Source of the DNA: a virus | Reading direction: 5' to 3' (one strand) | Virus record (IMG/VR): IMGVR_UViG_3300013132_005385 | Coordinates: 32,001 to 96,000 of that record | DNA length: 64,000 nt | Shown here: piece after piece, positions 4,181 through 59,890 of the stretch | Position numbering within the stretch: position 1 is the stretch's first letter | Layout: the number at the start of each line of letters is the position of its first letter | Made by a program: the position numbers and the translations under genes | Notes under the pieces: generated by a model | What the model was told of the DNA's origin: nothing | Databases searched by the model: none | What the model saw: only the letters and a program-made list of their open reading frames with translations

Positions 4181-4912
4181 TTATAGTCCTAATCTTCTGA
4201 AAAGATCCCCGCAAATTTCCCTATTGTTTGAAAGGGGTCTGGGAATATGACAGTCAATATAATCATATGGATTATAATCACCCTTCGGCCAGATAGCCTT
4301 ATCCAGTCTCCTAGTAGCATATTTTTCTTCGATCCAGCCCCTTTCAAGATGTTTGATTTGTATACCCGGTTTAATTCTGGATTGGTTATAAAAAAACTTT
4401 TGATCCGTACCAAACCTGATATTCATTCTCATTAATCTCCTGAGAAAAACCTTATGATCCGAATCACTAAGATCCAGCAAATCAGTAAAACTCCGTGGAT
4501 CACCAGCGAGATAACACATGGGGTACTGTGGATTAGTTCTGTACCATCTATATTGAATAACATCAGAGCTGTATGACACTATACCCCTATCTCCTATCTG
4601 GCTCGCACCATTTTCATAATACTCCCGAGATATAGGAAGCATATCCATATCTGAAATGATAAAAGGTGCATCTAATATTCTTGCACCCCAAAATCTTATG
4701 CACTGAGCTTGTTGGGCAATATTCCATTCTGGGATCGATTCCAGATAAATTGTTCTACCATATTCCGTCACATTTTGGGAAGGACCTTGGGAATCAATAT
4801 AAATTAGAACTGGTTCTATTCCAAGCTTCTGCCACATAGCTGCCACATAGGGCCAAAAATCCAGATACTCGGGATTAGCATTAGAACTCACTACGGCGTA
4901 CTTAATCTTCAT
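4181..4912 (-). CDS. putative glycosyltransferase
   Basis: ISDMDMLP DxD motif, YPMCY, TDQ, YIDCH.PRP; lies inside the GT cluster. Confidence 0.5.
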   Translation of the reverse strand: MKIKYAVVSSNANPEYLDFWPYVAAMWQKLGIEPVLIYIDSQGPSQNVTEYGRTIYLESIPEWNIAQQAQCIRFWGARILDAPFIISDMDMLPISREYYENGASQIGDRGIVSYSSDVIQYRWYRTNPQYPMCYLAGDPRSFTDLLDLSDSDHKVFLRRLMRMNIRFGTDQKFFYNQSRIKPGIQIKHLERGWIEEKYATRRLDKAIWPKGDYNPYDYIDCHIPRPLSNNREICGDLFRRLGL

Positions 4913-5523
4913 CTACGGATTATATTTCTGGCAGGTCTTTTATGAACGTTACGGCTCTCCTGAAAGTGTTCTATGATAGGTTTAAGCCCAGGGTACATAT
5001 TTCGTGTGTGATCGAAGATATAAGTGTACTCCGGAGGAAGATTACAATAAACTAGATCTGGATTCTCCCGAACAGCAGTTTGCATGTGTTTTTGCTCCCA
5101 TGTTTCGGGCTTAGATCTCTCGGCGGGTATTTTTGAGTTGATCTCTATCCACCTTTTTACCAGTGACACAGTCTTAAGATTGTTTCTTAAAAAAATTGTC
5201 CCTGATAATGCTTCGTCCTTTCTCCATCTAAAATCTTCCGTCCTATATGCTATATCACAATCTAGAGAATTAAAAAGATCTGGAAAGCTTCTAAAGGCAG
5301 CGTCAACATCCACATAGACTAAATTTTGATCTAGCTTCTCGAGACACTCCAGAATGAAATGTGCTTTATAATGTGTGTTCTTTTCCCAGCTTCCAAGGTC
5401 TCCTATGGGTTTAATGTAATGCGGAATTGAAAAGTTTTGGAGAGATTCCCGTAGTCTACCAGCTAAACTTTGGTAGTTTGAGTTTTGGGTGTAATAAGCT
5501 ATAACTAAAAATTGGGGGCTCAC
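4909..5523 (-). CDS. nucleotide-diphospho-sugar transferase (GT77-like)
   Basis: AYYT..Y...A.RL..SL, GSWEKNTHYKA.FI, VYVDVDA, SGTIF, WEQ, LPPEY..IFD, IEHFQESR; GTG start. Confidence 0.65.
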   Translation of the reverse strand: MSPQFLVIAYYTQNSNYQSLAGRLRESLQNFSIPHYIKPIGDLGSWEKNTHYKAHFILECLEKLDQNLVYVDVDAAFRSFPDLFNSLDCDIAYRTEDFRWRKDEALSGTIFLRNNLKTVSLVKRWIEINSKIPAERSKPETWEQKHMQTAVRENPDLVYCNLPPEYTYIFDHTRNMYPGLKPIIEHFQESRNVHKRPARNIIRR

Positions 5524-5677
5524 AAGTAATATATTATATAATAGAATTCATCCCCGGGATTTACTTCGTAAAAATTTTAGTCTGCCCTGGGTGGAAAGTT
5601 TCAGTTTCTTGAAAATTTTTTTTAGAAAGAAATAAAACCGCTCTTTCTATATATAATACGTATCATCCTAATGAACA

Positions 5678-6406
5678 ATGAAAATACTAAAGCCTTATTG
5701 GTTTCTAGAGAAGCCGGTCGATAAAGAACACAAATATTATGTGTTAATGGCTTATTTGCAATCCATTGAAAAGGACTTCTCCAATGGAGAATATGTTAAA
5801 CAGCTAACTAATGTACTTAGAATTCAAAAGGATCTTTGGAGCTTTAAGAACAAGGGTGTGCTATCAGTGAAATCAAATTCACATTTAACCGAAAGGGAAT
5901 TGGAAAAAACCCACGATCTCATAGATGATTTTTTACTTTCAGATGAAAGAGATGAAATAATAGAGGAGTCATTATCCACTATAGAAAAGTTTCTAGGAAA
6001 ACATGACTCAGTAATTAGAGAATATGATCAAATGGTAGAGGTAACTCATTCAGGATCTATAAATCAGACATGGGATAGGGGATTTCTCATTATCAGAAAA
6101 AACCTGGAGAGTATGCTTAGAATATTTTCTTGGAGTTTTTCTATTATTAAGATAGACGGGAATGAAAGCGTAGCCCTATTAATGACCGAGCTTCTTGATC
6201 CTGTGTGTGGATTTACCGAGGATGACAGAGAAGTTAAGAAGTTTTTAATACAGAATTTAAAATCTTCTATAATTAGTCCCAATGATGCTATTCTTTTTGG
6301 AAAAATCACTGAAGAGCTAGAACTGGATCTTGGTGTGGATCTATCCAAAGAAAAAGCTGTTGATATAATAGTGAAAAACTATAAGAAATCAATCGATCTC
6401 CTTTAG
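5678..6406 (+). CDS. hypothetical protein
   Basis: 242-aa ORF with TATATATA motif at 5648-5655 upstream. Confidence 0.6.
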   Translation: MKILKPYWFLEKPVDKEHKYYVLMAYLQSIEKDFSNGEYVKQLTNVLRIQKDLWSFKNKGVLSVKSNSHLTERELEKTHDLIDDFLLSDERDEIIEESLSTIEKFLGKHDSVIREYDQMVEVTHSGSINQTWDRGFLIIRKNLESMLRIFSWSFSIIKIDGNESVALLMTELLDPVCGFTEDDREVKKFLIQNLKSSIISPNDAILFGKITEELELDLGVDLSKEKAVDIIVKNYKKSIDLL

Positions 6407-6931
6407 CAGTAGGAATTTTTCTAAATTTTCCCCCTCAATACCGAAGCTCCCTGGATTGAACTGATCAATCTTAAAGATTAGACTTTCTTCTTCCCCTCCC
6501 GCTTCTGTTGTCACAACCTCTATCTTAGTTTTCTTTCTGTTTATGTAAAAGTCGCACGATTTACCATCCGGCGAAATGTGGTCTCTAAGAAATAAAAAAG
6601 ATCCGCTAGGCATTTCTATCAATTCTGGAGCTCCCCCCGTTTCTATTACTTTTTCCACCTTAGATATAAATTCTTTTAGTGCTGTTGAATCTAGATCCCT
6701 TATCGAAGAAGCACCAAACGATTCTGCATATTTACTTATTATCTGAGAGATCATTTTCTTTATTTGTGGGGTTTTATCTCCATAAAAATGAATGTCATTT
6801 ATCAGATCATCTATAAAATATCCATCCCTAAGATCTTTCTTAGCAAATTTGAATGATATGGACTCCTTAAATTTTGACCCTGCACTGGAGCTTTCCAAAA
6901 TAAATTTTGAGAAGTTGGAGATTCTATTCAT
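6389..6931 (-). CDS. putative capsid-internal protein (CTS-like N-terminus)
   Basis: N-terminus MNRISNFSKFILES resembles the T4 capsid-targeting sequence MKTYQEFIAE. Confidence 0.45.
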   Translation of the reverse strand: MNRISNFSKFILESSSAGSKFKESISFKFAKKDLRDGYFIDDLINDIHFYGDKTPQIKKMISQIISKYAESFGASSIRDLDSTALKEFISKVEKVIETGGAPELIEMPSGSFLFLRDHISPDGKSCDFYINRKKTKIEVVTTEAGGEEESLIFKIDQFNPGSFGIEGENLEKFLLLKEID

Positions 6932-7340
6932 GATTTGATTTCTTTTTTTGTAATTTTTGCGCCTCGGTATATGAAGAAAATCTAAAATCTTGAATATTCA
7001 GCGGCATTTCTATTTGTTCTAATAAATCTGGACCAAATTCAGGCCTATCCAAATTAGATATTCTGATTAAATTGGGATCAAATGCTGGCTCATAGGGCTT
7101 ACATTCCACTAATATTTCATCCTCTAGAGTTGAAAAAAATAGGCCATTTTTTAGAATAAAAAGATAATCTCCCAGATTTGCTGAAATTTTATTCCATACG
7201 GGTCTAAGAATTTTATATCCTCTATAAACAAAAGTTGTATCCTCATCACCTGTTCTTATCCACACATCAGTTTTGTGTGTGAATTTGTAATAGGATGGAG
7301 ATTCATAGGATTCCCCCGATAGCGATGAAAAATTACTCAT
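6924..7340 (-). CDS. hypothetical protein (late promoter upstream)
   Basis: 138-aa ORF; AATATATA at 7346-7353 on the minus strand. Confidence 0.55.
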   Translation of the reverse strand: MSNFSSLSGESYESPSYYKFTHKTDVWIRTGDEDTTFVYRGYKILRPVWNKISANLGDYLFILKNGLFFSTLEDEILVECKPYEPAFDPNLIRISNLDRPEFGPDLLEQIEMPLNIQDFRFSSYTEAQKLQKKKSNHE

Positions 7341-7343
7341 TAG

Positions 7344-7383
7344 GATATATATTCAATGACAGAATCTGTTAAATAGATATATA
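7344..7383. promoter_or_regulatory. divergent putative late promoters (RATATATA)
   Basis: AATATATA (-, 7346-7353) and GATATATA (+, 7376-7383) face the divergent ATGs at 7340 and 7393. Confidence 0.6.
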
Positions 7384-7392
7384 TAAAGACAA

Positions 7393-8115
7393 ATGATAGA
7401 AATAATCAAATTTGAGGAATTTAGATCAAAAAACGCTCCTATAGACAGGGAGGTTTTTGAACATCAGGTCGAGTTCATAGAAAGCGAGATCAGAAGAATG
7501 CGCAGGGAGGGATTAAGTGCAGATGAAATTAACGAAAACGTATTTTCCGATATTCTTTCCGGACTAGGAGGGGGTTTTTCCGATATTGTTAAGGATTACG
7601 TTATAGATTGGGCAGCTCAAAAAATGGGAGTCCAAACCCATGACGAAGCTGGTCAACCAACCATATTTTATCAGATGATACGTAATATCATAGAAAAAAT
7701 GGAATGGACCAAAATAGGATCGTATTTCGGAAAAGGATCATGTTCTCATTGGGCTAAAGCTATCGTTTTGGGTCTTGCTGATACCATAGAAGAAAAAGCC
7801 ATAGCTGCTATTCTTGGTGCTTTAGGTATGCAAATAGATGAAAGGGGGGGATTAGCTACAACACTAGCATTGTCTATAAGACAAGGATTACAGAACGCGG
7901 TTAATAACACAGATTTCATGAAGAATATAGAAAAAATGATATCAGGTAAATTGTGTGGAGCTAATTTTGGTGACATACTAAGTGGTATAACCAGATCTGA
8001 TCAAGATAAAGTGACTGACCAGATTCAGAGAGCTGCAGAAGATGACCCAAATATACTTAAAAAAGTAGCAACATCCGGGATAATGGATGTATTAACAAAA
8101 ACAGTTGCACCATGA
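7393..8115 (+). CDS. putative capsid-internal helical protein (CTS-like)
   Basis: MIEIIKFEEF N-terminus, INE putative protease site, late promoter upstream. Confidence 0.5.
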   Translation: MIEIIKFEEFRSKNAPIDREVFEHQVEFIESEIRRMRREGLSADEINENVFSDILSGLGGGFSDIVKDYVIDWAAQKMGVQTHDEAGQPTIFYQMIRNIIEKMEWTKIGSYFGKGSCSHWAKAIVLGLADTIEEKAIAAILGALGMQIDERGGLATTLALSIRQGLQNAVNNTDFMKNIEKMISGKLCGANFGDILSGITRSDQDKVTDQIQRAAEDDPNILKKVATSGIMDVLTKTVAP

Positions 8116-8363
8116 ACGTAAAAAACGTAAAAAAAAGAGAAATTCTAGATTACAAGCAATTCATTAAGGTTGCTTCGGATCCATTCAATAAACAAAACTT
8201 GAGCAAGGAGGACAGAACGGGTTTTAATAAAATTAAACCGGAAAAGCCATATGCTTATGTTGGATTTCAAGACCCTATATTTAATAAGGTATCAAAAATA
8301 GATTATCCAGGGAAAGGAGCTACAGAAAGCGGGATCACTGCTGAATTTGGAACTAGCGAATAA
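8112..8363 (+). CDS. small putative virion protein
   Basis: REILDYKQFIK CTS-like motif; overlaps the upstream stop (ATGA). Confidence 0.5.
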   Translation: MNVKNVKKREILDYKQFIKVASDPFNKQNLSKEDRTGFNKIKPEKPYAYVGFQDPIFNKVSKIDYPGKGATESGITAEFGTSE

Positions 8364-8379
8364 AAAATAAAAAATAAAA

Positions 8380-8979
8380 ATGGGAACTAAAATATTATCA
8401 TGGGAGGAATTCAGTAAGGAAAAAAAACAGCCTGATGTACCTCTTTTTAGCGACGATAACATGGCTAAAATACCTACTGAAGAAATCGATGGAATTGAAG
8501 AGGAGGAGGACGAGGATGCCATAGATTCTGAAGAAGTAAAGACGTTAAAGAATCAAACCGATGTCCAATCGGACGAGGACGATACTGAGGAAGAAGATAC
8601 TGAGGAAGAAGATACTGAGGAAGAAGATACTGAAGAGGAAGACGAGGACGATACTGAGGAGGAAGATACTGAGGAAGAAGATACTGAAGAGGAAGACGAG
8701 GACGATACTGAGGAAGAAGACGATACTGAGGAAGAAGACGAGGACGATACTGAGGAAGAAGATACTGAGGAAGAAGACGAGGACGATACTGAGGAAGAAG
8801 ATACTGAGGAAGAAGATACTGAAGAGGAAGACGAGGACGATACTGAGGAAGAAGATACTGAAGAGGAAGACGAGGACGATACTGAGGAAGAAGACGAGGA
8901 CGACCAGACCGAAGATGAAGATAGCGCGGAATCTACGGAGGAGCCAGTGGTAATAAGATTTGATACCTTTTTAGATTAA
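8380..8979 (+). CDS. polyacidic (DTEEE)n repeat protein
   Basis: 17 DTEEE units with DED spacers; KILSWEEF at the N-terminus and VIRFDTFLD at the C-terminus. Confidence 0.7.
   Translation: MGTKILSWEEFSKEKKQPDVPLFSDDNMAKIPTEEIDGIEEEEDEDAIDSEEVKTLKNQTDVQSDEDDTEEEDTEEEDTEEEDTEEEDEDDTEEEDTEEEDTEEEDEDDTEEEDDTEEEDEDDTEEEDTEEEDEDDTEEEDTEEEDTEEEDEDDTEEEDTEEEDEDDTEEEDEDDQTEDEDSAESTEEPVVIRFDTFLD
8572..8903 (+). repeat. tandem 15-bp repeat GATACTGA(G/A)GA(A/G)GAA with GACGAGGAC inserts
   Basis: Directly visible in the sequence. Confidence 0.95.
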
Positions 8980-8999
8980 AAAAATAAATATCGGCAGGA

Positions 9000-9024
9000 A
9001 AAAGCCTACCCTCGGTAGGCTTTT
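9000..9024. terminator. rho-independent terminator hairpin
   Basis: aaaagcctacc-ctc-ggtaggctttt perfect inverted repeat with T tail. Confidence 0.8.
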
Positions 9025-9048
9025 ATTTTGTTTGCGAATATATACATT

Positions 9049-10533
9049 ATGCCTATAGAACAGTTATCGGATTTTAAATTTAAGGGAATAAAGGGTAAGG
9101 AAAAAATGCCAACCGTTATAATACTAACGGGTAGACTTGGCAAAAATGGAAAAGCCCCAACTACCGATAAGATAGCAAAAATTTGCGAGTCTAAAGGAGC
9201 TCCTTGTATAATAGTGAATTCTGAAAAGGGAGTGGTTGAAAAAACACAGAGCGGAATAGTTTTGGTTGGAAATAAGAACGAGAAGCTCAGAGAAATATAT
9301 CTAGATAACACTGTGGTTCTAGCCAGAAGAACAGCCATAAACAATAATGCCTCCAAGACATTTTTTAAAAAATTGGAAGAATTAGGACTTCCGTGCGTTA
9401 ATACATACGATGCGGTCAATCTTTGTGAGGATAAATTACAAACCACAAGGGCATTACAAAGAAACAAGATCCCTGTACCCAAAACAGCCTTGGTTTCTGG
9501 AGAAGATGATATTGACAAATCAGTTAAGGAGGTAGGAGGAAAATTCCCGATTGTTTGTAAATTTATCTCCGGTACTAAAGGTATTGGAGTATTCAGCGTT
9601 GATTCAAGACCTAGCTTAGTTTCTACCCTTCAAGCAATGTGGAATTTATCTCCATCAACGGAGATAGTTATGCAAGAGAAGATAGAAGCTGATTATGACC
9701 TTAGAATACATGTTTTAGGAACAAGTGATGGAATGGGAGGCAGAGAATATAAAGTTATTGCCGCTATGAAAAGATTAAAAATAGAGGGTGATTTTAGAAC
9801 TAATTTTTCATTAGGCGGAGAAATAGAAGCTGTTGAGCTTGACAAAAAAACAAAAAAGATAGCAATAGAATCAGCTAAGGCAGTCGGCTGTCTTTGGGCA
9901 GGAGTTGATATCATTATAGATAAAAATACTGGAGATCCATATGTTCTAGAAGTTAACTCTTCCCCTGGAACGGATGGCATAGAAAAAGCCACGGGGATGA
10001 ATATTAGCCAAATTATTGCCGACTTTTTGGCTAATAAAGATAACTGGCTAAAACCTAAAAAAATTAGCGGATTTAGAGAAATAGTAACGATCCCGGGTGT
10101 TGGAAGCTTTGTAGCAAAACTAGACACCGGAAACGGAGCAGCGTCATGTTCCTTGCATGCTGATACTGTTGATGAAGAAGATGGATACCTAATATGGAGC
10201 ATGGGGGGAGAAACATATAGAAATAAAATACTAGGAACCTCAAGAGCTGAAGTTGGAAAAAATCTTCATATTAGGCCAATCATATCTTTAGATGTTGAAT
10301 TTAATGGTGCCAATTATAGAAAAATAAGATTCTCTTTGGTCGATAGAACAGAAAAGAGTACCCCTGTACTATTAAACAGAGATTTTATGTCTCTCGCAGG
10401 AATAGTAGTTGATCCCTCAGAAGATTTTATATTAACAGATCGTCCCGATGGATATTCGCCAAAAGACGCCAAGGGTAATCCAAAAGCAGGAGTTGTTATG
10501 GGAGACGACTCAGATGAGGATAATGACAATTAA
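9049..10533 (+). CDS. rimK: RimK-family ATP-grasp ligase fused to a C-terminal retropepsin-like aspartic peptidase (RimB/DUF785-like)
   Basis: ATP-grasp motifs DKLQT, PVPKT, PIVCK...GTKGIGV, MQEKI, DLRIHV, FRTNFSLGG, AGVDII, VLEVNSSPG; peptidase AKLDTGN..CSLHA, RP, FSLVDR.....PVLLNRDF. Start placed at ATG 9049, just after the AATATATA motif at 9037-9044. Confidence 0.85.
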   Translation: MPIEQLSDFKFKGIKGKEKMPTVIILTGRLGKNGKAPTTDKIAKICESKGAPCIIVNSEKGVVEKTQSGIVLVGNKNEKLREIYLDNTVVLARRTAINNNASKTFFKKLEELGLPCVNTYDAVNLCEDKLQTTRALQRNKIPVPKTALVSGEDDIDKSVKEVGGKFPIVCKFISGTKGIGVFSVDSRPSLVSTLQAMWNLSPSTEIVMQEKIEADYDLRIHVLGTSDGMGGREYKVIAAMKRLKIEGDFRTNFSLGGEIEAVELDKKTKKIAIESAKAVGCLWAGVDIIIDKNTGDPYVLEVNSSPGTDGIEKATGMNISQIIADFLANKDNWLKPKKISGFREIVTIPGVGSFVAKLDTGNGAASCSLHADTVDEEDGYLIWSMGGETYRNKILGTSRAEVGKNLHIRPIISLDVEFNGANYRKIRFSLVDRTEKSTPVLLNRDFMSLAGIVVDPSEDFILTDRPDGYSPKDAKGNPKAGVVMGDDSDEDNDN

Positions 10534-11933
10534 GAAAGGAAGATATCCACTGCTTTTTTTCTATAGTCCATAGGATCTTCCACTATTTTAGAATTTTTAA
10601 GGGCAAGTTTTTTTCTATCAATAACACAATCGGGCACCAATCCTCTGAAAGTGTCTTTAAGAATCTTTTTATTTTTTCTTTCTTCAAAAGGCAGAGACAT
10701 TGCAAATCTCACAATGTCCAGATTTAAAAAAGGATTTCTAAGCTCTAGAGTGTGCGCCATTGAAAGTTTATCCAGTCTTGGAAGATGATAATATGTCAGT
10801 TCGTGAAATATATCGGATAATTGGGAGTCATACTCATTTATCCTTCTATATCCTCCAAACAGTTCGTCTGCACCGTCACCTGAAATGACTATTCTAGTCT
10901 TTGATCCTTTTTTAATAGCATCAAATAGATGATATTGGGGAATAACGCTACCAAGATCTACTGGACTTTCATTCCATTTCCGATAGACCTCTTTCAAAAA
11001 GTCTAAATTATTTGCATCATCTGTGTCCATTGAATATTTTAGCCTATGTGATGATATTTCCCAGTAATTTTCACACGCTTTTATGTGCTCCTCGTCTTCT
11101 CCATTTTCTATTGAATAGAATTGAACGTCTGCACCTAGCTTGAGAAGCAATCCACCAATTATAGATGAATCCAGGCCTCCAGACAGAAGAAGAGAAGTTG
11201 GATAGTTTTTAGAGAGAAGTCTTGCCCTTGTTGCAGACTCTAATTTCTCCCAAAGCCAGTCCATTTTAGCTTCGTAGTTTTCAAACTCTATGTCGAAGGC
11301 GCTAAAATTGTAATATAGCGCGCTTTTATGGGTAAATGATGGATTATCCAAGTTCCAATAAACAAATGTGTTATTGGGCAGTTTAGCGATGTTTTTGAAG
11401 GGGGTTTCATCCGATACCAAGTAGCCACTTTTTAAAACTCCGCTGATGAAGGCCCCATTAGAAATTTCATCCCCTTTTAATAGGCCTTTTATCTCTGAGC
11501 AGACTGATCCGTCGCTACTTTTATAAAGGGATTTTTTACCTAGCGGATCGGTGAAGGCATAGACATCTTTAGTTTTTGTGTCAACCAAAACAATCGCCCA
11601 AAATCCGTCCCACGAACAGATATGTGGCTTAAATATTGCCTCAAACATGGGTAATCCCCCAAAATGAAAATTTGAAAACAACTTTTGTAAATATTCAGTG
11701 TCCGAATCATATCCCGAAGGGTAATTAAATATCTCCCCATTAAAAAGCATATACCTGTTTTCCCCGATTGGAACTGGCTGAGACCATCCATCTCCATCTA
11801 GAGTCTGTATAGGAAGTCTATGATGACACATGGTTATTCCATTTTCCCTGATAGTCTTATGCTCAATACCTCTATGGGAGATAGATTTTATTTGGCTCTC
11901 GGAAAGGTCTTTTCCTATTAAGATCCCGCACAT
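10530..11933 (-). CDS. asnB: asparagine synthetase B-family glutamine amidotransferase
   Basis: MCGI (Ntn Cys), HHRLPI, FNGEIFNY, SDTE, LSGGLDSS, SGDGADELFGGY, LDKLSMAHTLELRNPFL. Confidence 0.85.
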   Translation of the reverse strand: MCGILIGKDLSESQIKSISHRGIEHKTIRENGITMCHHRLPIQTLDGDGWSQPVPIGENRYMLFNGEIFNYPSGYDSDTEYLQKLFSNFHFGGLPMFEAIFKPHICSWDGFWAIVLVDTKTKDVYAFTDPLGKKSLYKSSDGSVCSEIKGLLKGDEISNGAFISGVLKSGYLVSDETPFKNIAKLPNNTFVYWNLDNPSFTHKSALYYNFSAFDIEFENYEAKMDWLWEKLESATRARLLSKNYPTSLLLSGGLDSSIIGGLLLKLGADVQFYSIENGEDEEHIKACENYWEISSHRLKYSMDTDDANNLDFLKEVYRKWNESPVDLGSVIPQYHLFDAIKKGSKTRIVISGDGADELFGGYRRINEYDSQLSDIFHELTYYHLPRLDKLSMAHTLELRNPFLNLDIVRFAMSLPFEERKNKKILKDTFRGLVPDCVIDRKKLALKNSKIVEDPMDYRKKAVDIFLS

Positions 11934-12481
11934 ATTAATTTATCAATTAGTTTTAGAAAATTTTCTTCGGATTGCGGGTCGAAGTGATTGCTGAATTGGT
12001 GTACTCTGATTCCCGCATCCGACATATAATCGGAAACCTTTTCAAATATTGAAAGCTCCTTTAGCCTTTCCTCGTTGTTTTCTAAATGATCCCAATGATC
12101 TTTATTTTTTCTAAATTTCATCGGAACATCCGATTTGATCAATATGATATCCACATCGTCAAATAATCCGCTAGAGATCATAAAATCTATTTCTGAGAAA
12201 ACATGGGCGTAGCTTACTCTTTCCTGATATATTCCCCATACCTCGTTGGTTAATATACCTCGATCTACTATCAGATTGTTTCCGAGGAATCCCTTAGAAT
12301 AGAGCTGATGCAGCATTATTTCCTTTCCCAGACCTAAAGAATGTGTTGTTTTTCCGTTAGTGGGAAGATTAAGCCCGCCATAAACTCCAGTAAAATCAAA
12401 CTTGAATTTTGACTGTGTAATTTTATCGGAAAGATGGGTTTTTCCTGAATTTCTTGGTCCTTCTAAAAGAATAAGGGGCAT
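11918..12481 (-). CDS. P-loop (deoxy)nucleotide monophosphate kinase-like protein
   Basis: LILLEGPRNSGKT Walker A and IVDRG motif typical of thymidylate/dNMP kinases. Confidence 0.65.
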   Translation of the reverse strand: MPLILLEGPRNSGKTHLSDKITQSKFKFDFTGVYGGLNLPTNGKTTHSLGLGKEIMLHQLYSKGFLGNNLIVDRGILTNEVWGIYQERVSYAHVFSEIDFMISSGLFDDVDIILIKSDVPMKFRKNKDHWDHLENNEERLKELSIFEKVSDYMSDAGIRVHQFSNHFDPQSEENFLKLIDKLICAGS

Positions 12482-12496
12482 AATCCTATTTTATGA

Positions 12497-12523
12497 TTAT
12501 ACCCCAAATTTAATAAAAATTCC
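12497..12523 (-). promoter_or_regulatory. putative phage ECF-sigma promoter GGAAT-N16-GTATAA
   Basis: Same architecture as 40174-40200 and 54882-54908; also contains TAAATTTG at 12505-12512. Confidence 0.5.
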
Positions 12524-12535
12524 GAATTTATTATC

Positions 12536-14734
12536 TTATAATGATTGGGAAAACTTTTTAATTACTTTTTTGATCTCTTCTGTGTTTGTCCATTCATCAG
12601 ATAGATCATCAAAAAGATTGCTTGACTTTCCTTTAGAGTTTAAAAAACTTTTATATCCGCTGGCGAGTAGCTTAATCTCTTCTGGCTTCCATTTTAAAAG
12701 CTCGTTATATAGCTTTTTATCTCTAAAGCTTGAACCATAAATATCCCTGTAAAGAGCGGTTATTTTTTTAGCATACTTATCGGGAGTTATTTTAGAAGCT
12801 AAGACTGAAAGCTTATCTGTTGATCCATCATTGCCTTTAAAAGAGTCATTTTCAGTGTCATAATATCCCATAACTTTGTCCCATAATCTGAGAGCCACCC
12901 CATTTTCATAGAATCTCAATCCTGGACAAGTTGCTATGGCCATATTTGTTCCTCCGTTATAGCCTTCGTTCTTTTTAACACCCTTTATTTTAACCAATTC
13001 CTGAACCTTTTTCTCTCTGTTGAAATCGCCTTTAACTTTGTTTACTGCGTCCTCAACGGCTTTTTTAATATCATCCGATGATATTTTTTTATCCGTTCCT
13101 GACTCTTTAGCAGCGGACTTTACTTCACCTTTGTTGACCTCTTCTGTTTTTCCTCTTGATCCCCCAGATTCTACAGTTTTCTTGAAAGCATCTCCATTAA
13201 AAGCTTCTAGGATTCCTTTATTTAACCTTTCAAAATCTCTAAAAGTAAGGACAGGAGATTTAGATTCCGTGAGTTTTTCGGTCTCTATTTTGTTTACTAA
13301 TTCTGCAGTTATGTCGGAAGATGAGTCTTTTAAATCAAATCCCGCCTTTAACCCTTGTATAATTCCAGCAGTAGACGATCCAAAAAGTCCATCCGCTCCA
13401 TATTTAGAAAATTTCTTCCAAATATCTGTTTCTGTTACCGCCTTTACATTTTTAAATTTGTTCAATATCAATTTTTGAAAAGCCTCAACATCTGGATTTT
13501 TCTTTCCGCCGGATTCTGATCTTTTAATTGGTTTTTTAAGATCTATTTCGGATTTAGTCTCCTTCTTTTCTCCCTCTCCTTCTTTCTTGGATGCTTCTGC
13601 TGCTTTTAGGATCTCCTCTGTTGCTGCTCCCCTTTCCTCATCGCCCTTATTTTTTAATTCCACTGCCTTGGAAAGAATCTCAGCCACTTTGGAATACTTA
13701 AGACTTTTAAGATAATTTATTCTTTCGTCTTTTATTTTGGAATCAAAATTGGATGAGCTCTCTTCAAGTTCCGATTTAATCTCAGTGTAAAGATCATTAT
13801 ATTTAGAGATAAGATCATCATCTTTGATCTTTCTTCCGTCTTCTTTTCTAGTTGTTTTTGCATCATTCATAAGCTCATTAGCTCTGTTAAGAAGCTGCTT
13901 GAATTTCTCCTCGTATTGACCTGGAGTTTTTAACTCCGGAGATGCTGAACTGTAGGTAGCTGCCTGATCTATTTTTGATTGAATTTGCGAGATCATGGTC
14001 TTACAGTTGTTTATAAAAGAAACCATATTTCCTTTCTTAGAAAATCTCTCCGCCCTTTTGCTCTCCAACGATTCAATAATAAATAATGACTCTTTTACCT
14101 CGCCTTTATTGGAAGAAAGAATCTTGATGGTTTCATCTAAAATGGATGCTATCTTATCACCTAAGAACTTCTTGGTTGATTCCGAGTCAAATTTATCGGG
14201 ATCTTGTTTTTTGAGCTCGTCTAGTGCCTGCTTATAAAGATCCATAGAAAGTTCATAGTTCTTAAAAGCCTGTTCAAATCCCTTACCCCCCGGATCCTTT
14301 ATTGCTCCCGCAAGAAAGTCTGTAAAAGCATTAGAGATCTTATCCATCACCGATTTTGGTGCTGAATCTGACTTAAGTCCCTGTAAAGCTGCATTAAATT
14401 TTGAACTAAACTCATCTTTAAATTTACCAGCAGGAAAAGAAACAACTGTAGATGTCATTATTGCATATGCACCAAAGATGATTTCGCTTAGAATTTTCTC
14501 CAAATCACTAATTTTCTTCTCGGCGGGTGCGGTAGAAGTTTTGGTTGTCTCTTCCTTTTTAGCCGTGGAGTCTCCTGGTTTTGCTGCTGTTTCTGGCTTA
14601 GCAGGATCAGCAGGCTTTTTCTCTGCCCCCGCTGCTTCCTGTTCATTCAAAGATGAATTCAAAGTCTGATATCTTTGAGCCTTTTCAAGAAGCTGATTAA
14701 ATAGCGGGTTTTGTATAAGATCTTGTTTTCTCAT
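12536..14734 (-). CDS. large helical virion/ejection protein with a peptidoglycan-binding-like domain and C-terminal annexin-like repeat
   Basis: VEAFQKLI...ADGLFGSSTAGII (PGBD pattern); LNEQ, VKES, IIES, LTES, ILEA putative gp21 sites; C-terminal LYRDIYG...LFDDLSDE. Confidence 0.5.
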   Translation of the reverse strand: MRKQDLIQNPLFNQLLEKAQRYQTLNSSLNEQEAAGAEKKPADPAKPETAAKPGDSTAKKEETTKTSTAPAEKKISDLEKILSEIIFGAYAIMTSTVVSFPAGKFKDEFSSKFNAALQGLKSDSAPKSVMDKISNAFTDFLAGAIKDPGGKGFEQAFKNYELSMDLYKQALDELKKQDPDKFDSESTKKFLGDKIASILDETIKILSSNKGEVKESLFIIESLESKRAERFSKKGNMVSFINNCKTMISQIQSKIDQAATYSSASPELKTPGQYEEKFKQLLNRANELMNDAKTTRKEDGRKIKDDDLISKYNDLYTEIKSELEESSSNFDSKIKDERINYLKSLKYSKVAEILSKAVELKNKGDEERGAATEEILKAAEASKKEGEGEKKETKSEIDLKKPIKRSESGGKKNPDVEAFQKLILNKFKNVKAVTETDIWKKFSKYGADGLFGSSTAGIIQGLKAGFDLKDSSSDITAELVNKIETEKLTESKSPVLTFRDFERLNKGILEAFNGDAFKKTVESGGSRGKTEEVNKGEVKSAAKESGTDKKISSDDIKKAVEDAVNKVKGDFNREKKVQELVKIKGVKKNEGYNGGTNMAIATCPGLRFYENGVALRLWDKVMGYYDTENDSFKGNDGSTDKLSVLASKITPDKYAKKITALYRDIYGSSFRDKKLYNELLKWKPEEIKLLASGYKSFLNSKGKSSNLFDDLSDEWTNTEEIKKVIKKFSQSL

Positions 14735-14745
14735 TTTTTTATTTT

Positions 14746-14997
14746 TTATTTTTTTTCCAGGTCCTCCATTTTTTTAACGGCCACAGATTTTTTTTGGAGT
14801 GCAGCTACTTTCTTTTGTAGTTCCATAGCTTGTTGACGCAAAGACTCTGATTGGGTTATTTCTTTCTTATTGACTCTGTCTTTAAGATAAGAAACAGCAA
14901 GATCGGCTTTAGATATTTCCTTATCTATATTTTGGATCTCGAGGTCTATCGATGATTCCTCGTTCAGTAAAAAATCATTAATTCTCTTGAGCTGCAT
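14746..14997 (-). CDS. small coiled-coil putative head protein
   Basis: MQLKRINDFLLNEES CTS-like start. Confidence 0.5.
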   Translation of the reverse strand: MQLKRINDFLLNEESSIDLEIQNIDKEISKADLAVSYLKDRVNKKEITQSESLRQQAMELQKKVAALQKKSVAVKKMEDLEKK

Positions 14998-15817
14998 ACT
15001 TTCTTTTACTTACTTTTTCTACCCTATATATCTTATCCCTAGTATCTTTGTGCTCCTTTCTATATGAGGATTCTATTTCTCTAATCTCCTTCCTAATGAC
15101 AGATTCAGCATACACATCATCTTCCTTTCTAGCTCTTGTCAATTGTTTTCTAAGGTTTAGAGTTGCATTGTCCATTAGCTTTTGAAGAGACCAGGTGTAT
15201 TTCTTTAGTGATCTCTCAAGGGAATCTAGTTCCCTGGTGGAGATGCTTTGTATGTGTGATTCAAATTCTCCGGTAGACATAGATAAAACTCTTTCAACCT
15301 CAGGATCAACATCTATAGGGGATGAATCAGGTAAGGAGTAAATAGATGAATCATCCTTCATTTTTTTATCCGCTATTGCGGTCATTCTTTCTAGGTCAGA
15401 TGTCAATTTTCTAAGCGTTTCATCCGATTCATATCCCTTTGATTTTTTTAGGGTCTCTTCGGCAGCTTCTATTTCTATTTTTGCCAATTTAGATTGGAAG
15501 TGACTTAGAAGATCCGATTTGTTTCCTATGATTTCATATGCTTCTTTTTTCAGATTCTCCGCCTCTCTATTCTTTGCTAGCTGATAATTACTAAGAGATT
15601 TTTTAAGCATCTCCACTTCAAAAGATGATTCTTCTCCCGATTTGTACAGGTCGAAAATTTCTTTTTTTATCTTACCTGACTCCTTAACAAAATCCATCCT
15701 GGATTCTTTAATTTTATTAAGTATAGAGTCCAATTTTGATTTTTTACCCATAATAGATGAGAACAATCCGCTTAGAATTCCCTCACTTACAAACTCTTCA
15801 AATCTGTATATCTTCAT
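14978..15817 (-). CDS. coiled-coil putative head-internal protein
   Basis: MKIYRFEEFVSEG CTS-like start. Confidence 0.55.
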   Translation of the reverse strand: MKIYRFEEFVSEGILSGLFSSIMGKKSKLDSILNKIKESRMDFVKESGKIKKEIFDLYKSGEESSFEVEMLKKSLSNYQLAKNREAENLKKEAYEIIGNKSDLLSHFQSKLAKIEIEAAEETLKKSKGYESDETLRKLTSDLERMTAIADKKMKDDSSIYSLPDSSPIDVDPEVERVLSMSTGEFESHIQSISTRELDSLERSLKKYTWSLQKLMDNATLNLRKQLTRARKEDDVYAESVIRKEIREIESSYRKEHKDTRDKIYRVEKVSKRKYAAQEN

Positions 15818-16797
15818 TATGATACTTTAACTTCCGTCATTTTAATTTTACCTCCGTCCTTGGCTTTAAGAAGAAATTTCACTACCTTTTGATTCTCCTC
15901 GTTAAGATCTAGAAATTTTTCGACCATATCTGGTGAATATTCTCCTCCTGATATTTCTTCCACAACTTGCTTGTGTAGGGAGTCCAATTTTTTAACTGCA
16001 TCTTCTATTTTTCCTCCCGATGTTTTTATCTGTTGGAATTTTTTAGTGAAAACAGACAACATATCATCACTTATAGGATGTATATTAGCTGCTTCTCTTT
16101 GAGCATCTTCCTCTGCTTTTTTAGCGAGCTCTCTTGATTTATCCACATCTTTACTTATCTTATCAAAATCAACACCAAAGAATTTTTCAAGCTGATCAAC
16201 ATCTTCTTTATACATCTTGCTGAGTTCCTTTGATTTATTATATCTGTCGATCTGAGTTTCTAAAACATCAGAAGCTCTCTGTACGTTGAAATACTTCTTT
16301 TTTCTGTTACTGTCCTTTGTTAGGGATTTAACCTTTTCTTCCAATGAATTAAATATGGTATCGTGGGTTTTTACGAGTTCTTTTAGGGTGTTATTTAGCA
16401 TTCTTCTGGAATCAGTTATTGCCTTTAGCATTTCATCTCTCTTTGGATTTGTGCTGTCTTTTTCAAGTGCTTTTTGCTTTTTTATCAACCCGTAAAAATC
16501 CTTGAATATAGTGAATTCTTCCTTATTAAACTTTAATTCCTGTTCTTTCATCTGGGTTAAGGCTGTCTTTAACTTGCTGATATCCCCACCAATTTTGCTG
16601 CTGATAAAATTTATGATGGAATCTTTTAATCCCTCATTAATTAAAGATAGCTCAGCTGCAAGGTCATCTGTGTTAGCTGATTCAAATAAAGGCCCCTGGT
16701 ACTTTCTTAGGACGTTAATTGCAGCTTTGATATCACCTTTACTTTCCATAAGGGCTTTTTCTGCTGCTTCAAATTTATCAAAGGAATCGATTATCAT
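15817..16797 (-). CDS. coiled-coil putative head-internal protein
   Basis: MIIDSFDKF, LMES/LFES/INEG sites; GATATATA at 16815-16822. Confidence 0.55.
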   Translation of the reverse strand: MIIDSFDKFEAAEKALMESKGDIKAAINVLRKYQGPLFESANTDDLAAELSLINEGLKDSIINFISSKIGGDISKLKTALTQMKEQELKFNKEEFTIFKDFYGLIKKQKALEKDSTNPKRDEMLKAITDSRRMLNNTLKELVKTHDTIFNSLEEKVKSLTKDSNRKKKYFNVQRASDVLETQIDRYNKSKELSKMYKEDVDQLEKFFGVDFDKISKDVDKSRELAKKAEEDAQREAANIHPISDDMLSVFTKKFQQIKTSGGKIEDAVKKLDSLHKQVVEEISGGEYSPDMVEKFLDLNEENQKVVKFLLKAKDGGKIKMTEVKVS

Positions 16798-16850
16798 TGT
16801 TTTTTTCTTTTATCTATATATCCAAAAAATGGATAGTAAACCCAACAAAC

Positions 16851-16903: not shown

Positions 16904-18625
16904 TTAGACGATACCACCAGTTGGCATTGAAACGTACAATGTCAAGTACATGGACTGTGGGTGGTGACCAGCCTCTACAAGCGCATATCTTGATTTGACA
17001 GCGATTTTTGGAGACATAGTACCTTCTGAGATAGTCTGGATAGATTCAGCCATCATGTAAGGCATGAATTTCAATCCTGGCTCATCATCAGCACCTTTTC
17101 TACCAACAAGCACTCTAGTGTCGTTGAAGTTCATGTTTTGATCAACATAAACGGTCATACCAGCAAGAGAACCTACAGGGTACAAAGTACCGTTGTTCTG
17201 AGTAAGAGTGTTAGTGAAAGGAGCGAAAGTGAACTGGCTGATATCTTGCAACGCAGACGCAACTTGTGAGTTGGTAACGATGAAGTTAGCAGGACCTCTT
17301 CTTCCTCTGTTAGCTACTACGTTAGCAGCTGCAAGGACTCTAGAGAACAATCTTCTTTGTAGAGTAGATTGGTTTTCGAAAGAAGTACCTGAAGGACCAG
17401 CTGGGATAGCCATTGTGAATCCAGTGTTGTCTTTTCCGATGTAAGCAGATGTAACAGAAGCACTACCAGACAACTGAAGATTAAGGTTAAGGTTTGTTCC
17501 CTCTGTGTTCTTAAACTCGTTGTGGTTTGACCAACCAAGTGCAAAAGCTCTTGAAAGGATGTGCTTGTTGATCGCCTGAGAAACCTCGTTAACGAGAGCG
17601 TTTTCGATCATAGAAACTACGTCAATACCGAATTGCTTGTTAAGGTCTTGGATTTGCTCAGTTGTTACAGAAGCAGCAACTTGGAAAGTACCAGCTTCTA
17701 CGAACTTAGTGAAAGTAGAAAGACCAAGTGACTTGTAGTAAGTGCTTTCTCCTATTCCTCTGCTCATTGGATCATAAACCTGAGTTCCGTCTACGTAAGG
17801 ACCTTGGAAATTAGCGGTATTGTTAACTCCAGCACCACTAAATCCTTGGATGTGATCTTCTAAGGTTTTAACCAATTGAGCAGCTGCAGATACGAAAGAT
17901 AATGCTGAACCTGTAGATCCAGAAGAAGCTGTAGTATCGTTATCCAGCGCGGCTCTAATTTCAGAGTTAGCAGTAACTGCATCAGCAATAGAATCGTTAT
18001 TTGTTAAAGCTGTAACTTTGAAGATAGGGAATCCGTCGATACGAGAATATCCTACGAATGCACCTTTAAGAGTTGGGTCTGTACCTGCGGTTGTTCCTGT
18101 TACGAAGATAACATATTGAGTACCAACAGTTAAAGTACCAAATACCGGAGATGCAGCAGATACTGGAACTTTGATTAAATCTGGGGAGTTCGCAGTGAAA
18201 GGTGAAGTTGTATCACTTCCTGTAAGTTTTCCACCTGCATAAACATAGTCAAGGTAGGAAAGAACTCCAGTTGGACCGCTCATAGGAATAACCGGAACGA
18301 TGTCAAAACCGATAGTTTTTGCAGCTACCTGAATAGCTAGAGGAAGAAGGGATGGGAATTTGTCGCCAGATCCAAGACCAGTTCCTGAATATGTTCCACC
18401 AGCGTAGAATCCAGCAGGACCTTGTCCAAGATTTCCGGCAGCAGTGATTGCGCCCATACCATTGAGTACGCCAAGAGAGTTATACGCTCCGGCAGACTCG
18501 TTAAGAGAGTGGAAGTGGCAGTAAGTTGAAAGCCATTCTACTTTACCTCTCTCAGTGAGACCTGTTTTGCTCTCGATTATCGGAGCCCAGGTTTCATAAA
18601 TTTCATGTTGATTAATTAGTTGCAT
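16904..18625 (-). CDS. gp23: major capsid protein (T4 gp23-like)
   Basis: W.PIIE, IGFDIVPVIPMSGPTG, TTEQIQDLNKQFGID, EVSQAINKHIL, RGRRGPANFIVT, VGSLAG.TVYVD, FMPY, PKIAVKSRYAL. Confidence 0.92.
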   Translation of the reverse strand: MQLINQHEIYETWAPIIESKTGLTERGKVEWLSTYCHFHSLNESAGAYNSLGVLNGMGAITAAGNLGQGPAGFYAGGTYSGTGLGSGDKFPSLLPLAIQVAAKTIGFDIVPVIPMSGPTGVLSYLDYVYAGGKLTGSDTTSPFTANSPDLIKVPVSAASPVFGTLTVGTQYVIFVTGTTAGTDPTLKGAFVGYSRIDGFPIFKVTALTNNDSIADAVTANSEIRAALDNDTTASSGSTGSALSFVSAAAQLVKTLEDHIQGFSGAGVNNTANFQGPYVDGTQVYDPMSRGIGESTYYKSLGLSTFTKFVEAGTFQVAASVTTEQIQDLNKQFGIDVVSMIENALVNEVSQAINKHILSRAFALGWSNHNEFKNTEGTNLNLNLQLSGSASVTSAYIGKDNTGFTMAIPAGPSGTSFENQSTLQRRLFSRVLAAANVVANRGRRGPANFIVTNSQVASALQDISQFTFAPFTNTLTQNNGTLYPVGSLAGMTVYVDQNMNFNDTRVLVGRKGADDEPGLKFMPYMMAESIQTISEGTMSPKIAVKSRYALVEAGHHPQSMYLTLYVSMPTGGIV

Positions 18626-20638: not shown

Positions 20639-20692
20639 TTTCTGTAATTAGATTATATATCTTTAGATCTTTGGATTTCTTTCCTTAGATTA

Positions 20693-23086: not shown

Positions 23087-23848
23087 TTATTCATTATATA
23101 TTTTCGAATAGGCCTTAGAAATTAGATCTATTAGTTTTTCTATATATCCTTCATTCCTTAACTTTTTAAAGGCTAGATTTTCCACTGAAAATTCCCCGCT
23201 GTTAGCTAGTCCCTCTTTTCTTGATTTTAAAATTCTAGACTTTACCCTCTGCGTGTGATCATATAATTCCCTGGCTTCTTCCTCTGAGGATACTGATGTT
23301 GAAAGCTTATTTTCCAGTTCGTGTATATCATTTACGAAGCCATGAAATTTCACGTCAACGTCTCTGTAGTCTATTTGGGGATCTGTTGGTTTTGGGACTC
23401 TGATCCATTCATTACGTAGGAGTGAAAAAAGTCCAGAAGATGTGTGTGGTTCTTCTATATCCTGCACGTAAAGCTCAACGTCATGAGATCTGATAATCAC
23501 ATCATGCCTTAGATTCCAGATAAACCTCTGTCCATCTAATCCCTTTTTAACTAGTTCCACATTAGGATCTACCCTAGAAAAATCTATTAGAACGTGAATA
23601 TCAAGGTCTGAATATTTGGTCCAATTATAGTTTGCTAATGACCCCGTTAATTGTATATCAGCTATAGGAACATCGACTTTCATATCGCCAAAAAAATCTT
23701 TGGCTATTTCCAATAATTTTTTTCTTACCCCCTGGTCAAATTCGCCATCTTCAGTCCAGAAAGAAGAATTCAATTCTTTTTTATAGAATTCATCCCTGAC
23801 CTCTTCCTGTTCTATGATCCATGATTCTAATTTTGCTATATGTGACAA
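23087..23848 (-). CDS. Pol-beta superfamily nucleotidyltransferase
   Basis: LTGSLANYNWTKYSDLDIHV (GS...DxD), VELYVQD, GEFSVENLAFKKLRN; TTG start after GATATATA at 23865-23872. Confidence 0.8.
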   Translation of the reverse strand: MSHIAKLESWIIEQEEVRDEFYKKELNSSFWTEDGEFDQGVRKKLLEIAKDFFGDMKVDVPIADIQLTGSLANYNWTKYSDLDIHVLIDFSRVDPNVELVKKGLDGQRFIWNLRHDVIIRSHDVELYVQDIEEPHTSSGLFSLLRNEWIRVPKPTDPQIDYRDVDVKFHGFVNDIHELENKLSTSVSSEEEARELYDHTQRVKSRILKSRKEGLANSGEFSVENLAFKKLRNEGYIEKLIDLISKAYSKIYNE

Positions 23849-56360: not shown

Positions 56361-56403
56361 TCCTTTTTATTTTATATATTTGTCCTTATCAACTGGACAA
56401 AAA

Positions 56404-59814: not shown

Positions 59815-59890
59815 TTGAGATTTTTATTTGTATATATTTAGAAGTTGGGATTTTTCTATCCTCCTCTTTCTCTATATATATCTTTTCTCT

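Follow-up and report, generated by a model that had tools for sequence, protein, structure and literature searches.

The window analysed in this study is a 64,000-nucleotide (nt) stretch, bases 32001-96000, of the viral record IMGVR_UViG_3300013132_005385 (119,741 bp; estimated completeness 39%; G+C 36.7%). Two neighbouring genes on its plus strand were investigated, one for a polyacidic repeat protein (8380-8979; 199 amino acids (aa), 62% Asp plus Glu (D+E)) and one for a fusion enzyme in which a RimK-type ligase part precedes a RimB-type peptidase part (K-B order; 9049-10533; 494 aa). ATG 9049 was the most plausible start of the enzyme, and the alternative TTG 9028 fell within the tail of an intrinsic-terminator-like hairpin (9000-9024, plus strand; 11-bp stem, T-rich tail), which separates the two genes as had been annotated initially. 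The linkage of enzyme and acidic gene recurred among relatives, and both genes lay near the capsid and prohead protease genes, among neighbours whose products shared a short terminal motif resembling the capsid-targeting sequence (CTS) of phage T4. No match was found when window bases 6000-14000 were compared with the phage collection by megablast.

The enzyme was assigned, from sequence and model comparisons, as a RimK-family ligase fused in a single chain to a RimB/RloA-type retropepsin-like peptidase. The ATP-grasp ligase domain occupied residues 38-325 (9160-10023, plus strand) according to TIGR00768, the PDB profile and Foldseek, and the retropepsin-like domain (RimB/RloA, PF05618) occupied residues 343-465 (10075-10443, plus strand), with the catalytic DTG encoded at 10123-10131. 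Pfam RimK (PF08443) matched residues 127-325 at 6e-39 (134 bits against a cut-off of 21) and rimK_fam (TIGR00768), the NCBIfam model of the RimK-family α-L-glutamate ligases, was passed with 158.7 against 143.4; the LysX, CofF and MptN equivalog cut-offs were not reached, nor was that of any other equivalog. A profile made from a 20-sequence alignment of the enzyme family (alignment A1) was searched against the PDB, and the best matches were RimK structures (7qyr, 1.1e-42; 4iwx, 1.2e-38), followed by ArgX/LysX (1e-15 to 1e-13) and PsnB (7e-5). In the AlphaFold2 model the mean predicted local distance difference test score (pLDDT) was 84.4, with residues 1-17 and 486-494 disordered, and RimK chains ranked top in Foldseek with template modelling (TM) scores of 0.82-0.88. 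Because ArgX (3vpb) also attained 0.88, the fold cannot separate these families by itself and the RimK assignment rests on sequence.

For the peptidase part, the RimB-type family PF05618, which bears the Pfam name "Zn_protease", matched residues 405-462 with 26.6 bits, just under the cut-off of 27, and was precomputed for most close homologues of the enzyme. Over residues 339-465 the A1 profile found 9g59 (8.2e-7) and 9g58 (9.3e-6), both solved RloA proteins of P. aeruginosa, and 2pma (3e-5); the RloA model NF052262 gave 27.2 against a cut-off of 280. The sequence DTGNG (residues 359-363) was invariant in 20/20 aligned homologues, and D359-T360-G361 stood opposite the LDTG of 9g58 in the pairwise alignment. 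The initial description of a RimK-type ligase and a DTG peptidase in one chain was thus borne out by the family model, the closest solved structures and the invariant catalytic motif. The disordered N-terminal extension (residues 1-17, MPIEQLSDFKFKGIKGK; 9049-9099, plus strand; pLDDT <50) fell within columns 1-30 of alignment A1, where it aligned with a CTS-like FLNEAK presequence of distant orthologues.

The acidic protein contained 47 Asp, 76 Glu and 24 Thr, and its longest run of Asp and Glu was seven residues. The 17 DTEEE units and the flanking motifs KILSWEEF (residues 4-11) and VIRFDTFLD (residues 191-199) were present as described before. At the nucleotide level the array formed a tandem 15-nt repeat (8581-8903, plus strand) with higher-order periods of 24, 39 and 54 nt, and Tandem Repeats Finder placed about 21 copies of a 15-nt period at 8581-8870. 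In an alignment of 17 acidic-protein sequences (alignment A2), conservation was confined to the termini. In the N-terminal ILSWEEF (residues 5-11; 8392-8412, plus strand), whose aromatics W8 and F11 stand at i and i+3, E10 was invariant and I5 and F11 were conserved in at least 90%. In the C-terminal VIRFDTF (residues 191-197; 8950-8970, plus strand), with the same spacing of aromatics, F194 was invariant and F197 was conserved in at least 90%. Acidic proteins of the closest relatives (the near clade defined below) started with M-x-K-K-I-L-S-F-E-E-F-S and ended with V-I-R-F-D-N-F-F-x, and acidic open reading frames (ORFs) of distant relatives ended with R-V-L-S-[FY]-x-D-F-F. The cores, for example DTEEE, EESEE, EDED and DDMDLEDED, had no useful homology, which indicated complete turnover with the ends alone conserved, and no Pfam, PHROG or NCBIfam model matched the protein. 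Internal copies of the C-terminal motif (VPVLRFDSF and SPVLTFRDF) also occurred in two large head-module proteins encoded at 20693-23083 and 12536-14734 on the minus strand, which share the N-terminus NP[LV]F[EN]x[LM]L as well.

The linkage was evaluated in 79 distinct loci fetched from viral contigs. The near clade comprised 20 loci with enzymes at least 54% identical to that of the window and formed one clade with 100% support in a quick maximum-likelihood IQ-TREE analysis. An acidic ORF adjoined the enzyme gene in 19 of these 20 loci, and the twentieth was cut 1.2 kb upstream. It was an ORF of 155-277 aa with 43-78% D+E, directly upstream on the same strand in 17/20, and lay three genes upstream on the opposite strand in 2/20. 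Among the 59 distant loci, an ORF with at least 35% D+E was found in 13, and a convergent acidic ORF lay 180-313 nt downstream of the enzyme gene in 25, as judged by net charge together with the C-terminal motif; one further match (in locus L069), 2.3 kb away and on the same strand, was left out of the 25. All ORFs with at least 35% D+E in the flanks of 6 kb on either side of the 79 enzyme genes lay within three genes of the enzyme, in one of those two arrangements. On the enzyme tree the two arrangements occupied two of the three major clades; the downstream arrangement was present in 19 of 26 rows of one clade, and the third clade (17 rows) had none. These results indicated that the linkage is old and maintained, with few independent origins. 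Co-occurrence in relatives, on which the initial annotation had made its proposal depend, was therefore found in both groups of loci.

The terminal motifs had been regarded as private to the pair, and this did not hold, for they were also found on non-acidic neighbours, in the enzyme family and in the prohead protease. KILSWEEF and VIRFDTFLD belong to a class with the form aromatic-x-x-aromatic followed by hydrophobic-x-Glu (h-x-E), which resembles the T4 CTS, MKTYQEFIAE (PMC8442874). In T4, targeting is described as dependent on residues 4 and 7 of the CTS, and processing by the prohead protease gp21 on residues 8 and 10 (PMC9026906). The motif class headed at least seven neighbouring gene families in the window. 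Family A (6389-6931, minus strand; 180 aa) started with MNRISNFSKFILE-SSSAG, a CTS-like presequence followed by h-x-E; its orthologues occurred in 17 loci and 16/16 distinct N-termini read M-[KR]-x-h-x-x-[FY]-x-x-[FL]-..-E-S-[ST]-A-(A)-G. Family C (7393-8115, plus strand; 240 aa; no Pfam or PHROG match) started with MIEIIKFEEF and had orthologues in 20 loci, in which the start read M-V-I-R-K-Y-S-Q-F-I-S-E-S. Family D (8112-8363, plus strand; 83 aa), also with orthologues in 20 loci, carried REILDYKQF at residues 9-17, with [IV]-L-x-[YF]-K-x-F at residues 11-17 in the family, and ended in Glu, as did 7 of 8 orthologues examined.

Nearer to the capsid gene, on the minus strand, an 83-aa protein (14746-14997) started with MQLKRINDFLLNE-ES, and its orthologues of 87-102 aa had a like motif. 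Family J (14978-15817; 279 aa, coiled-coil-like) started with MKIYRFEEFVSE-G; matches occurred in 20 loci, the head-module orthologues read ...[LI]-x-E-F-x-x-[LI]-[ND]-E-G, and the match in locus L024 was weak and internal (20% identity) and lacked the N-terminal motif. A 326-aa helical protein next to the capsid gene (15817-16797), which started with MIIDSFDKFEAAE, is a candidate scaffold protein. The N-terminal motif was kept across orthologue families that were otherwise 20-50% identical.

The enzymes outside the near clade started with the motif as well, for example KVLDFWSFLNEAK, LKYFSDFVNEAK and RLAYFNEFVINEA. A strict pattern, [FYWL]xx[FYW]-h-(x)-x-E, was applied to the first 34 residues of the enzymes and to the first 24 residues of the flank ORFs. 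It was matched by 40 of 64 distinct enzymes, all 40 being among the 47 enzymes from outside the near clade; the 24 misses were 17 near-clade enzymes and seven others, of which three had a two-residue insertion and one was cut by the contig end. N-terminal matches were found in 82 of 1051 distinct flank ORFs, compared with 10-23 in later windows of the same proteins and 20.2 ± 4.5 (maximum 33) in shuffles. A second pattern, applied to the window's own record, was found at the N-terminus of 8 of 128 ORFs; interior windows gave 0-2 matches and shuffles 1.65 ± 1.28. Seven of the eight mapped to 5.6-16.8 kb, next to the genes for capsid protein and protease. The h-x-E element itself was seen in distant-clade enzymes (LNE, then A) and in families A, C and J. 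In four distant loci (L034, L036, L040 and L061), runs of small unrelated ORFs starting with MKHIxxFExF[LV]NE surrounded the enzyme gene; these flanks look like a hyperplastic cargo-gene region akin to the T-even internal-protein loci.

The motif-bearing block adjoined the genes for a T4-type head. The major capsid protein (16904-18625, minus strand) belonged to the T4 gp23 family (Pfam Gp23, 9.5e-41) and had a possible maturation site, HSLNE-SAG, near residue 43, where L-x-E was kept in eight distinct orthologues. The prohead protease (18638-20638, minus strand; 666 aa) belonged to the T4 gp21/S77 family (Peptidase_S77, 36.9 bits against 27; phrog_207, 6.2e-33), and its long C-terminal extension contained tandem 14-aa units, NISYSEYLAENLDK (nt 19300-19669; 42-nt period with 8 copies by Tandem Repeats Finder). 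These repeats (YSEYLAEN) presented the presequence motif in series; about 15 units could be counted, each like the T4 CTS followed by an L-A-E cleavage site. The presequences may dock onto this array or assemble together with it. Within the clade that had no acidic neighbour, the distance between enzyme gene and capsid gene was 2.1-3.8 kb. The closest relatives of the capsid protein were those of Prevotella Lak phages and of Tenacibaculum, Flavobacterium and Chryseobacterium phages, and from these relatives together with the labels of metagenome-assembled genomes (MAGs) a Bacteroidota-type host is suggested.

The arrangement shares much with T4, in which the internal proteins (IPI-III and Alt) carry an N-terminal presequence of 10-19 residues with the same two aromatics three apart and hydrophobic-x-Glu, and in which gp21-type protease and gp23-type capsid protein are likewise encoded. 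The T4 cargo is similarly diverse, with only the presequence in common, and Alt is an enzyme with propeptides at both ends (PMC9026906). The T4 internal proteins are described as highly basic, in contrast to a cargo that here counts a strongly acidic protein among its members. Further differences are that the motif of this phage is found at C-termini too and in tandem copies within the protease, that the targeting is a prediction, and that the phage is a jumbo phage with a capsid protein nearest to those of Lak, Tenacibaculum and Flavobacterium phages.

The fusion enzyme is not rare. At least 569 viral contigs encoded a relative (569 of the 600 pattern matches listed); a scan of viral contigs with the single sequence gave one relative, and the alignment-based scan gave the wider set. 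In a word-index search 8000 proteins were scored, of which 1971 reached E <= 0.001, and the best 120 of the 1971 were mostly about 490 aa long, many with PF05618, on contigs of up to 453 kb. In prokaryotes, sampled with one genome per species, 4 of 26 matching loci covered most of the enzyme, all of them on MAG contigs of 2.5-47.5 kb, and four more matched residues 263-483. One of the latter, L088, was a 403-aa K-B protein with a degenerate ligase part (4470-5681, plus strand) on a 102-kb Flavobacteriales MAG contig, beside purF-, fabD- and polyprenyl-synthase-like genes; its peptidase part was 47% identical to the phage one and it lacked the presequence. The K-B order may have come from bacteria through a protein of this type. 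The full-length relatives in deposited phages were those of Pelagibacter phage Mosig and of the Yersinia phages YerA41 and GN1. The Mosig gene ("putative glutathione synthetase") had the K-B architecture with 33% identity over 91% of the query and an N-terminus, PFKNYLEEA, which fits the presequence pattern. YerA41 gp066 ("structural protein") had the same architecture (32% identity over 75% of the query) and was detected in particles; this homologue, listed as g112, a "ribosomal protein modification protein", is marked as particle-associated from LC-MS/MS data in Table 3 of PMC7354516. Neither the Mosig nor the YerA41 gene had an acidic neighbour (adjacent ORFs, 12-16% D+E), and both lay amid replication and nucleotide-metabolism genes. 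T4-like cyanophages had the ligase part alone: their RimK ("ribosomal protein S6 glutaminyl transferase", phrog_2599) has a homologous ATP-grasp with 29-33% identity at residues 89-332, approximately, and the matches span 45-49% of the query, with no peptidase domain. On phage-packaged RimK, a literature search found nothing beyond a PaBG gene list and the RimB paper (PMC11957791).

The same two domain families occur in Pseudomonas RimK and RimB and in the natural RimBK hybrid (Desulfotalea psychrophila DP2392), likewise one polypeptide. According to Little et al. 2025 (PMC11957791), RimB is a DTG-dependent endopeptidase for Glu runs which needs 5-6 contiguous Glu and also cuts an internal E8 linker; free poly-α-glutamate was detected only when RimK and RimB acted together; and the hybrid, with RimB N-terminal to RimK, is proteolytically active and occurs mostly in Flavobacteriales and Rhodobacterales. 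In the phage family the order is reversed, with the ligase N-terminal and the peptidase C-terminal, and an N-terminal presequence is added. The phage genes also stand in a head module by a polyacidic gene, and not by rimA or rpsF. RimBK hybrids and T4 internal proteins are thus known kinds, and what is new is a fusion in reverse order to the bacterial hybrid, situated in head modules, bearing likeness to a T4-type tag and tied to polyacidic proteins.

Taken together, these data suggested a working model for the pair, which we favour tentatively and hold to be possible, though somewhat short of probable: both proteins would be late, head-internal cargo, and the enzyme would act on Glu-rich tails, with its acidic neighbour as the likeliest substrate or primer. 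The two genes would sit in a late-expressed head-cargo block of a jumbo myophage with a T4-type head. Because the enzyme family has a presequence and the acidic protein carries the motif at both ends, both may be loaded into the prohead core; the h-x-E that follows the aromatics of the presequence corresponds to the cleavage motif of the gp21 protease, by which it could be removed. In the prohead core or in the late cytoplasm, the peptidase domain would then cut acidic tracts, and the ligase domain would extend Glu C-termini or make free poly-α-glutamate. The product would be a polyanionic peptide pool within the head, comparable to scaffold-derived acidic peptides. The initial annotation had offered three roles, namely polyglutamylation of virion or host proteins, formation of Thr-Glu esters in the repeats, and processing of the acidic protein into polyanions during head maturation; the last fits the head-module context best. 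The wider proposal, that large phages package a polyglutamate writer/eraser together with an encoded polyacid and so obtain a polyanionic capsid phase (as counter-ion, spacer or ejection aid) or an injected decoy, is doubtful at present.

Several observations weigh against this model. The longest Glu run in the acidic protein of the window was four residues, compared with the 5-6 contiguous Glu needed by Pseudomonas RimB, and a run of at least five was present in just 18 of 30 distinct acidic partners and in 0/11 of the distant-clade ones. The enzyme missed the S6-ligase equivalog NF007764 (116.6 against 331), which bears on its acceptor. Independent origins of the linkage were few, two or three on the tree, and 34 of the 59 distant loci had no adjacent acidic ORF, which means that the enzyme does not need an adjacent acidic gene. 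As for packaging, the enzyme of the window and its near clade lacked h-x-E (LSDFKFKG or LLEKFVFKG), the window's enzyme having L6 and F9, so that packaging of this enzyme rests on homology; the N-terminal motif of the acidic protein was followed by S-K-E, a weak fit to h-x-E, and most orthologues had no Glu there, which leaves its processing uncertain. A looser pattern (aromatic-x-x-F/Y, h-x-E) was not enriched in the window's record, with 4 of 128 N-termini matching, while interior windows gave 2-6 matches and shuffles 2.65 ± 1.56. The particle list of YerA41 contains 63 proteins, among them polymerases, a ligase, a terminase and an endolysin (PMC7354516), so that contamination of this proteome is possible, and the YerA41 homologue gene is classed there as middle and not late.

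The same evidence for packaging could serve an enzyme that is ejected as a host-takeover effector. Packaged like T4 Alt, it would rewrite early in infection the Glu tail of host bS6 (RpsF) or of another acidic-tailed protein, and the acidic protein, packaged along with it, would serve as a decoy or inhibitor that holds it idle until ejection. RpsF is the known acceptor of RimK and is trimmed by RimB, and S6 glutaminyl transferase is the annotation given to the cyanophage RimK genes. The RimBK hybrid is concentrated in Flavobacteriales and Rhodobacterales, and since the capsid protein is nearest to those of phages that infect Prevotella, Tenacibaculum, Flavobacterium and Chryseobacterium, the likely hosts may carry the RimBK system. 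We nevertheless consider this role unlikely, while granting it real weight, because the enzyme failed the S6-ligase equivalog by the margin given above, the D. psychrophila hybrid was reported not to glutamylate Pseudomonas RpsF (PMC11957791), and the long-kept acidic linkage would be left unexplained save by a conjectural inhibitor function. In another view, the acidic gene would encode cargo in its own right, a head-internal or injected polyanion (a DNA mimic, an anti-restriction decoy or an expendable scaffold filler), and would adjoin the enzyme gene only because both share a cargo block. A block with at least seven motif-bearing families of unrelated sequence, distant loci in which many unrelated small presequence ORFs surround the enzyme gene, and a core that varies freely while staying acidic would all agree with such a view, as would the T4 internal proteins, described as diverse anti-defence cargo with only the CTS in common (PMC3012670). 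The confinement of every ORF with at least 35% D+E to within three genes of the enzyme, a pairing which outlasted the switch from a co-directional upstream to a convergent downstream arrangement, and the glutamate-tract chemistry of both enzyme domains make it rather improbable.

Modification of the repeats themselves, in the manner of ribosomally synthesized and post-translationally modified peptides (RiPPs), would turn the terminal motifs into leader and follower, with the ATP-grasp cross-linking the repeat core, or modifying it in another way, in the cytoplasm and the peptidase removing the recognition peptides. Graspetide (microviridin and plesiocin) maturases share the ATP-grasp fold, and their substrates are repeated acidic cores with recognition peptides on the flanks. 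Short conserved hydrophobic motifs do bracket a variable core here, and graspetide ligases have RimK-like folds, with PsnB and MdnC matching the model at TM 0.67-0.70. The graspetide models, however, were far under their cut-offs (MvdC-type TIGR04185, 28.9 against 425; TIGR04187, 26.6 against 350), and RimK outscored PsnB by at least 30 orders of magnitude in the PDB profile search. The partner cores lacked conserved Thr, Ser or Lys; because those of two orthologues (L007 and L079) contained 1 Thr, 1 Ser and 0 Lys, there is no conserved donor for an ester or amide, and the Thr-Glu esters suggested initially were not supported. With the same motif on non-acidic neighbours, on the enzyme itself and on the prohead protease, a RiPP-like system is very improbable. 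A role in DNA hypermodification came into consideration from the T-modified DNA of YerA41, and was dropped in view of the lack of a DNA link in the enzyme family, the head-module context and the presequence.

RimK/RimB chemistry has so far been known as a bacterial system for ribosome tuning, and in phages RimK genes are generally classed as metabolic accessories. If the packaging proposed here is true, the enzymes within phage heads would extend beyond ADP-ribosyltransferases, polymerases and nucleases, head cargo of uncultivated Bacteroidota jumbo phages could be predicted from sequence by a simple rule, the motif, and the pair would offer a testable system for the role of acidic peptides in T4-type heads. 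If the reading of a writer/eraser with its polyacid is also true, enzymatic polyglutamylation would be part of virion construction.

The expression signals around the pair agreed with the earlier statement that the enzyme has its own upstream box, common to structural genes. Only 4 nt stood between the end of the AATATATA box (9037-9044, plus strand) and the enzyme ATG, which implies that the mRNA is leaderless or has a very short leader. The box is kept in relatives of the enzyme, because their longer alternative ORF translations read IYIM or IYNM. In the 119.7-kb record, 22 of 125 ORFs had ATATATA in the 40 nt upstream compared with about 0.8 expected from the genome-wide density, an enrichment that AT-rich intergenic DNA inflates to some degree. 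The ORFs included those of the prohead protease, tail sheath, tail fibre, scaffold candidate, 240-aa protein and enzyme. Copies of (G/A)ATATATA, for example at 7377-7385, 9037-9044, 16815-16821, 20654-20660, 56373-56379 and 59831-59837, stood 4-30 nt upstream of the 22 ORFs, mostly structural genes. The total count of ATATATA in the window did not exceed chance (30, with 23.65 ± 7.25 in shuffles), so the signal is purely positional, and in this phage group (G/A)ATATATA is a candidate for a late promoter element. The acidic gene had no such box of its own. The genes at 7393-8115 and 8112-8363 overlap by 4 nt and are followed after a gap of 16 nt by the acidic gene, and because of this overlap and gap it is probably co-transcribed with them from the ATATATATA box (7377-7385, plus strand), a putative promoter upstream of the string.

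Two further genes were convergent on the enzyme gene, one for an asparagine-synthase-like (AsnB-like) glutamine amidotransferase (10530-11933, minus strand; TIGR01536, 196 bits against a cut-off of 267) and one for a 187-aa P-loop protein (11918-12481, minus strand). Both were kept in 20/20 near-clade loci and were absent from the flanks of the other 59; a putative carboxylate-amidating enzyme adjoining a polyacid system is suggestive. A NAGGN-like trio of ATP-grasp, AsnB-like amidotransferase and peptidase was considered on account of the convergent AsnB-like gene and was rejected, the equivalogs TIGR03104 (107.3 against 570) and TIGR03103 (32.4 against 569) scoring far under their cut-offs. 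In YerA41, 3.6 kb downstream of the RimK-peptidase gene, YerA41_074 (9769-10149 of locus L002) was annotated with some similarity to LysW, which is an acidic-tailed carrier used by the RimK-family ligase LysX. By the head module of the window, a 253-aa protein (23087-23848, minus strand) showed weak similarity to a nucleotidyltransferase (24 bits) and to the SidM N-terminal domain (22.4 bits, below the cut-off). C-termini with Glu were observed in the 83-aa family D protein (8112-8363, plus strand), in the 796-aa head-module protein (20693-23083, minus strand; ...VEETEE) and in the portal protein (35451-37082, minus strand; ...PAEGE), and these three are possible acceptors for a C-terminal glutamate ligase.

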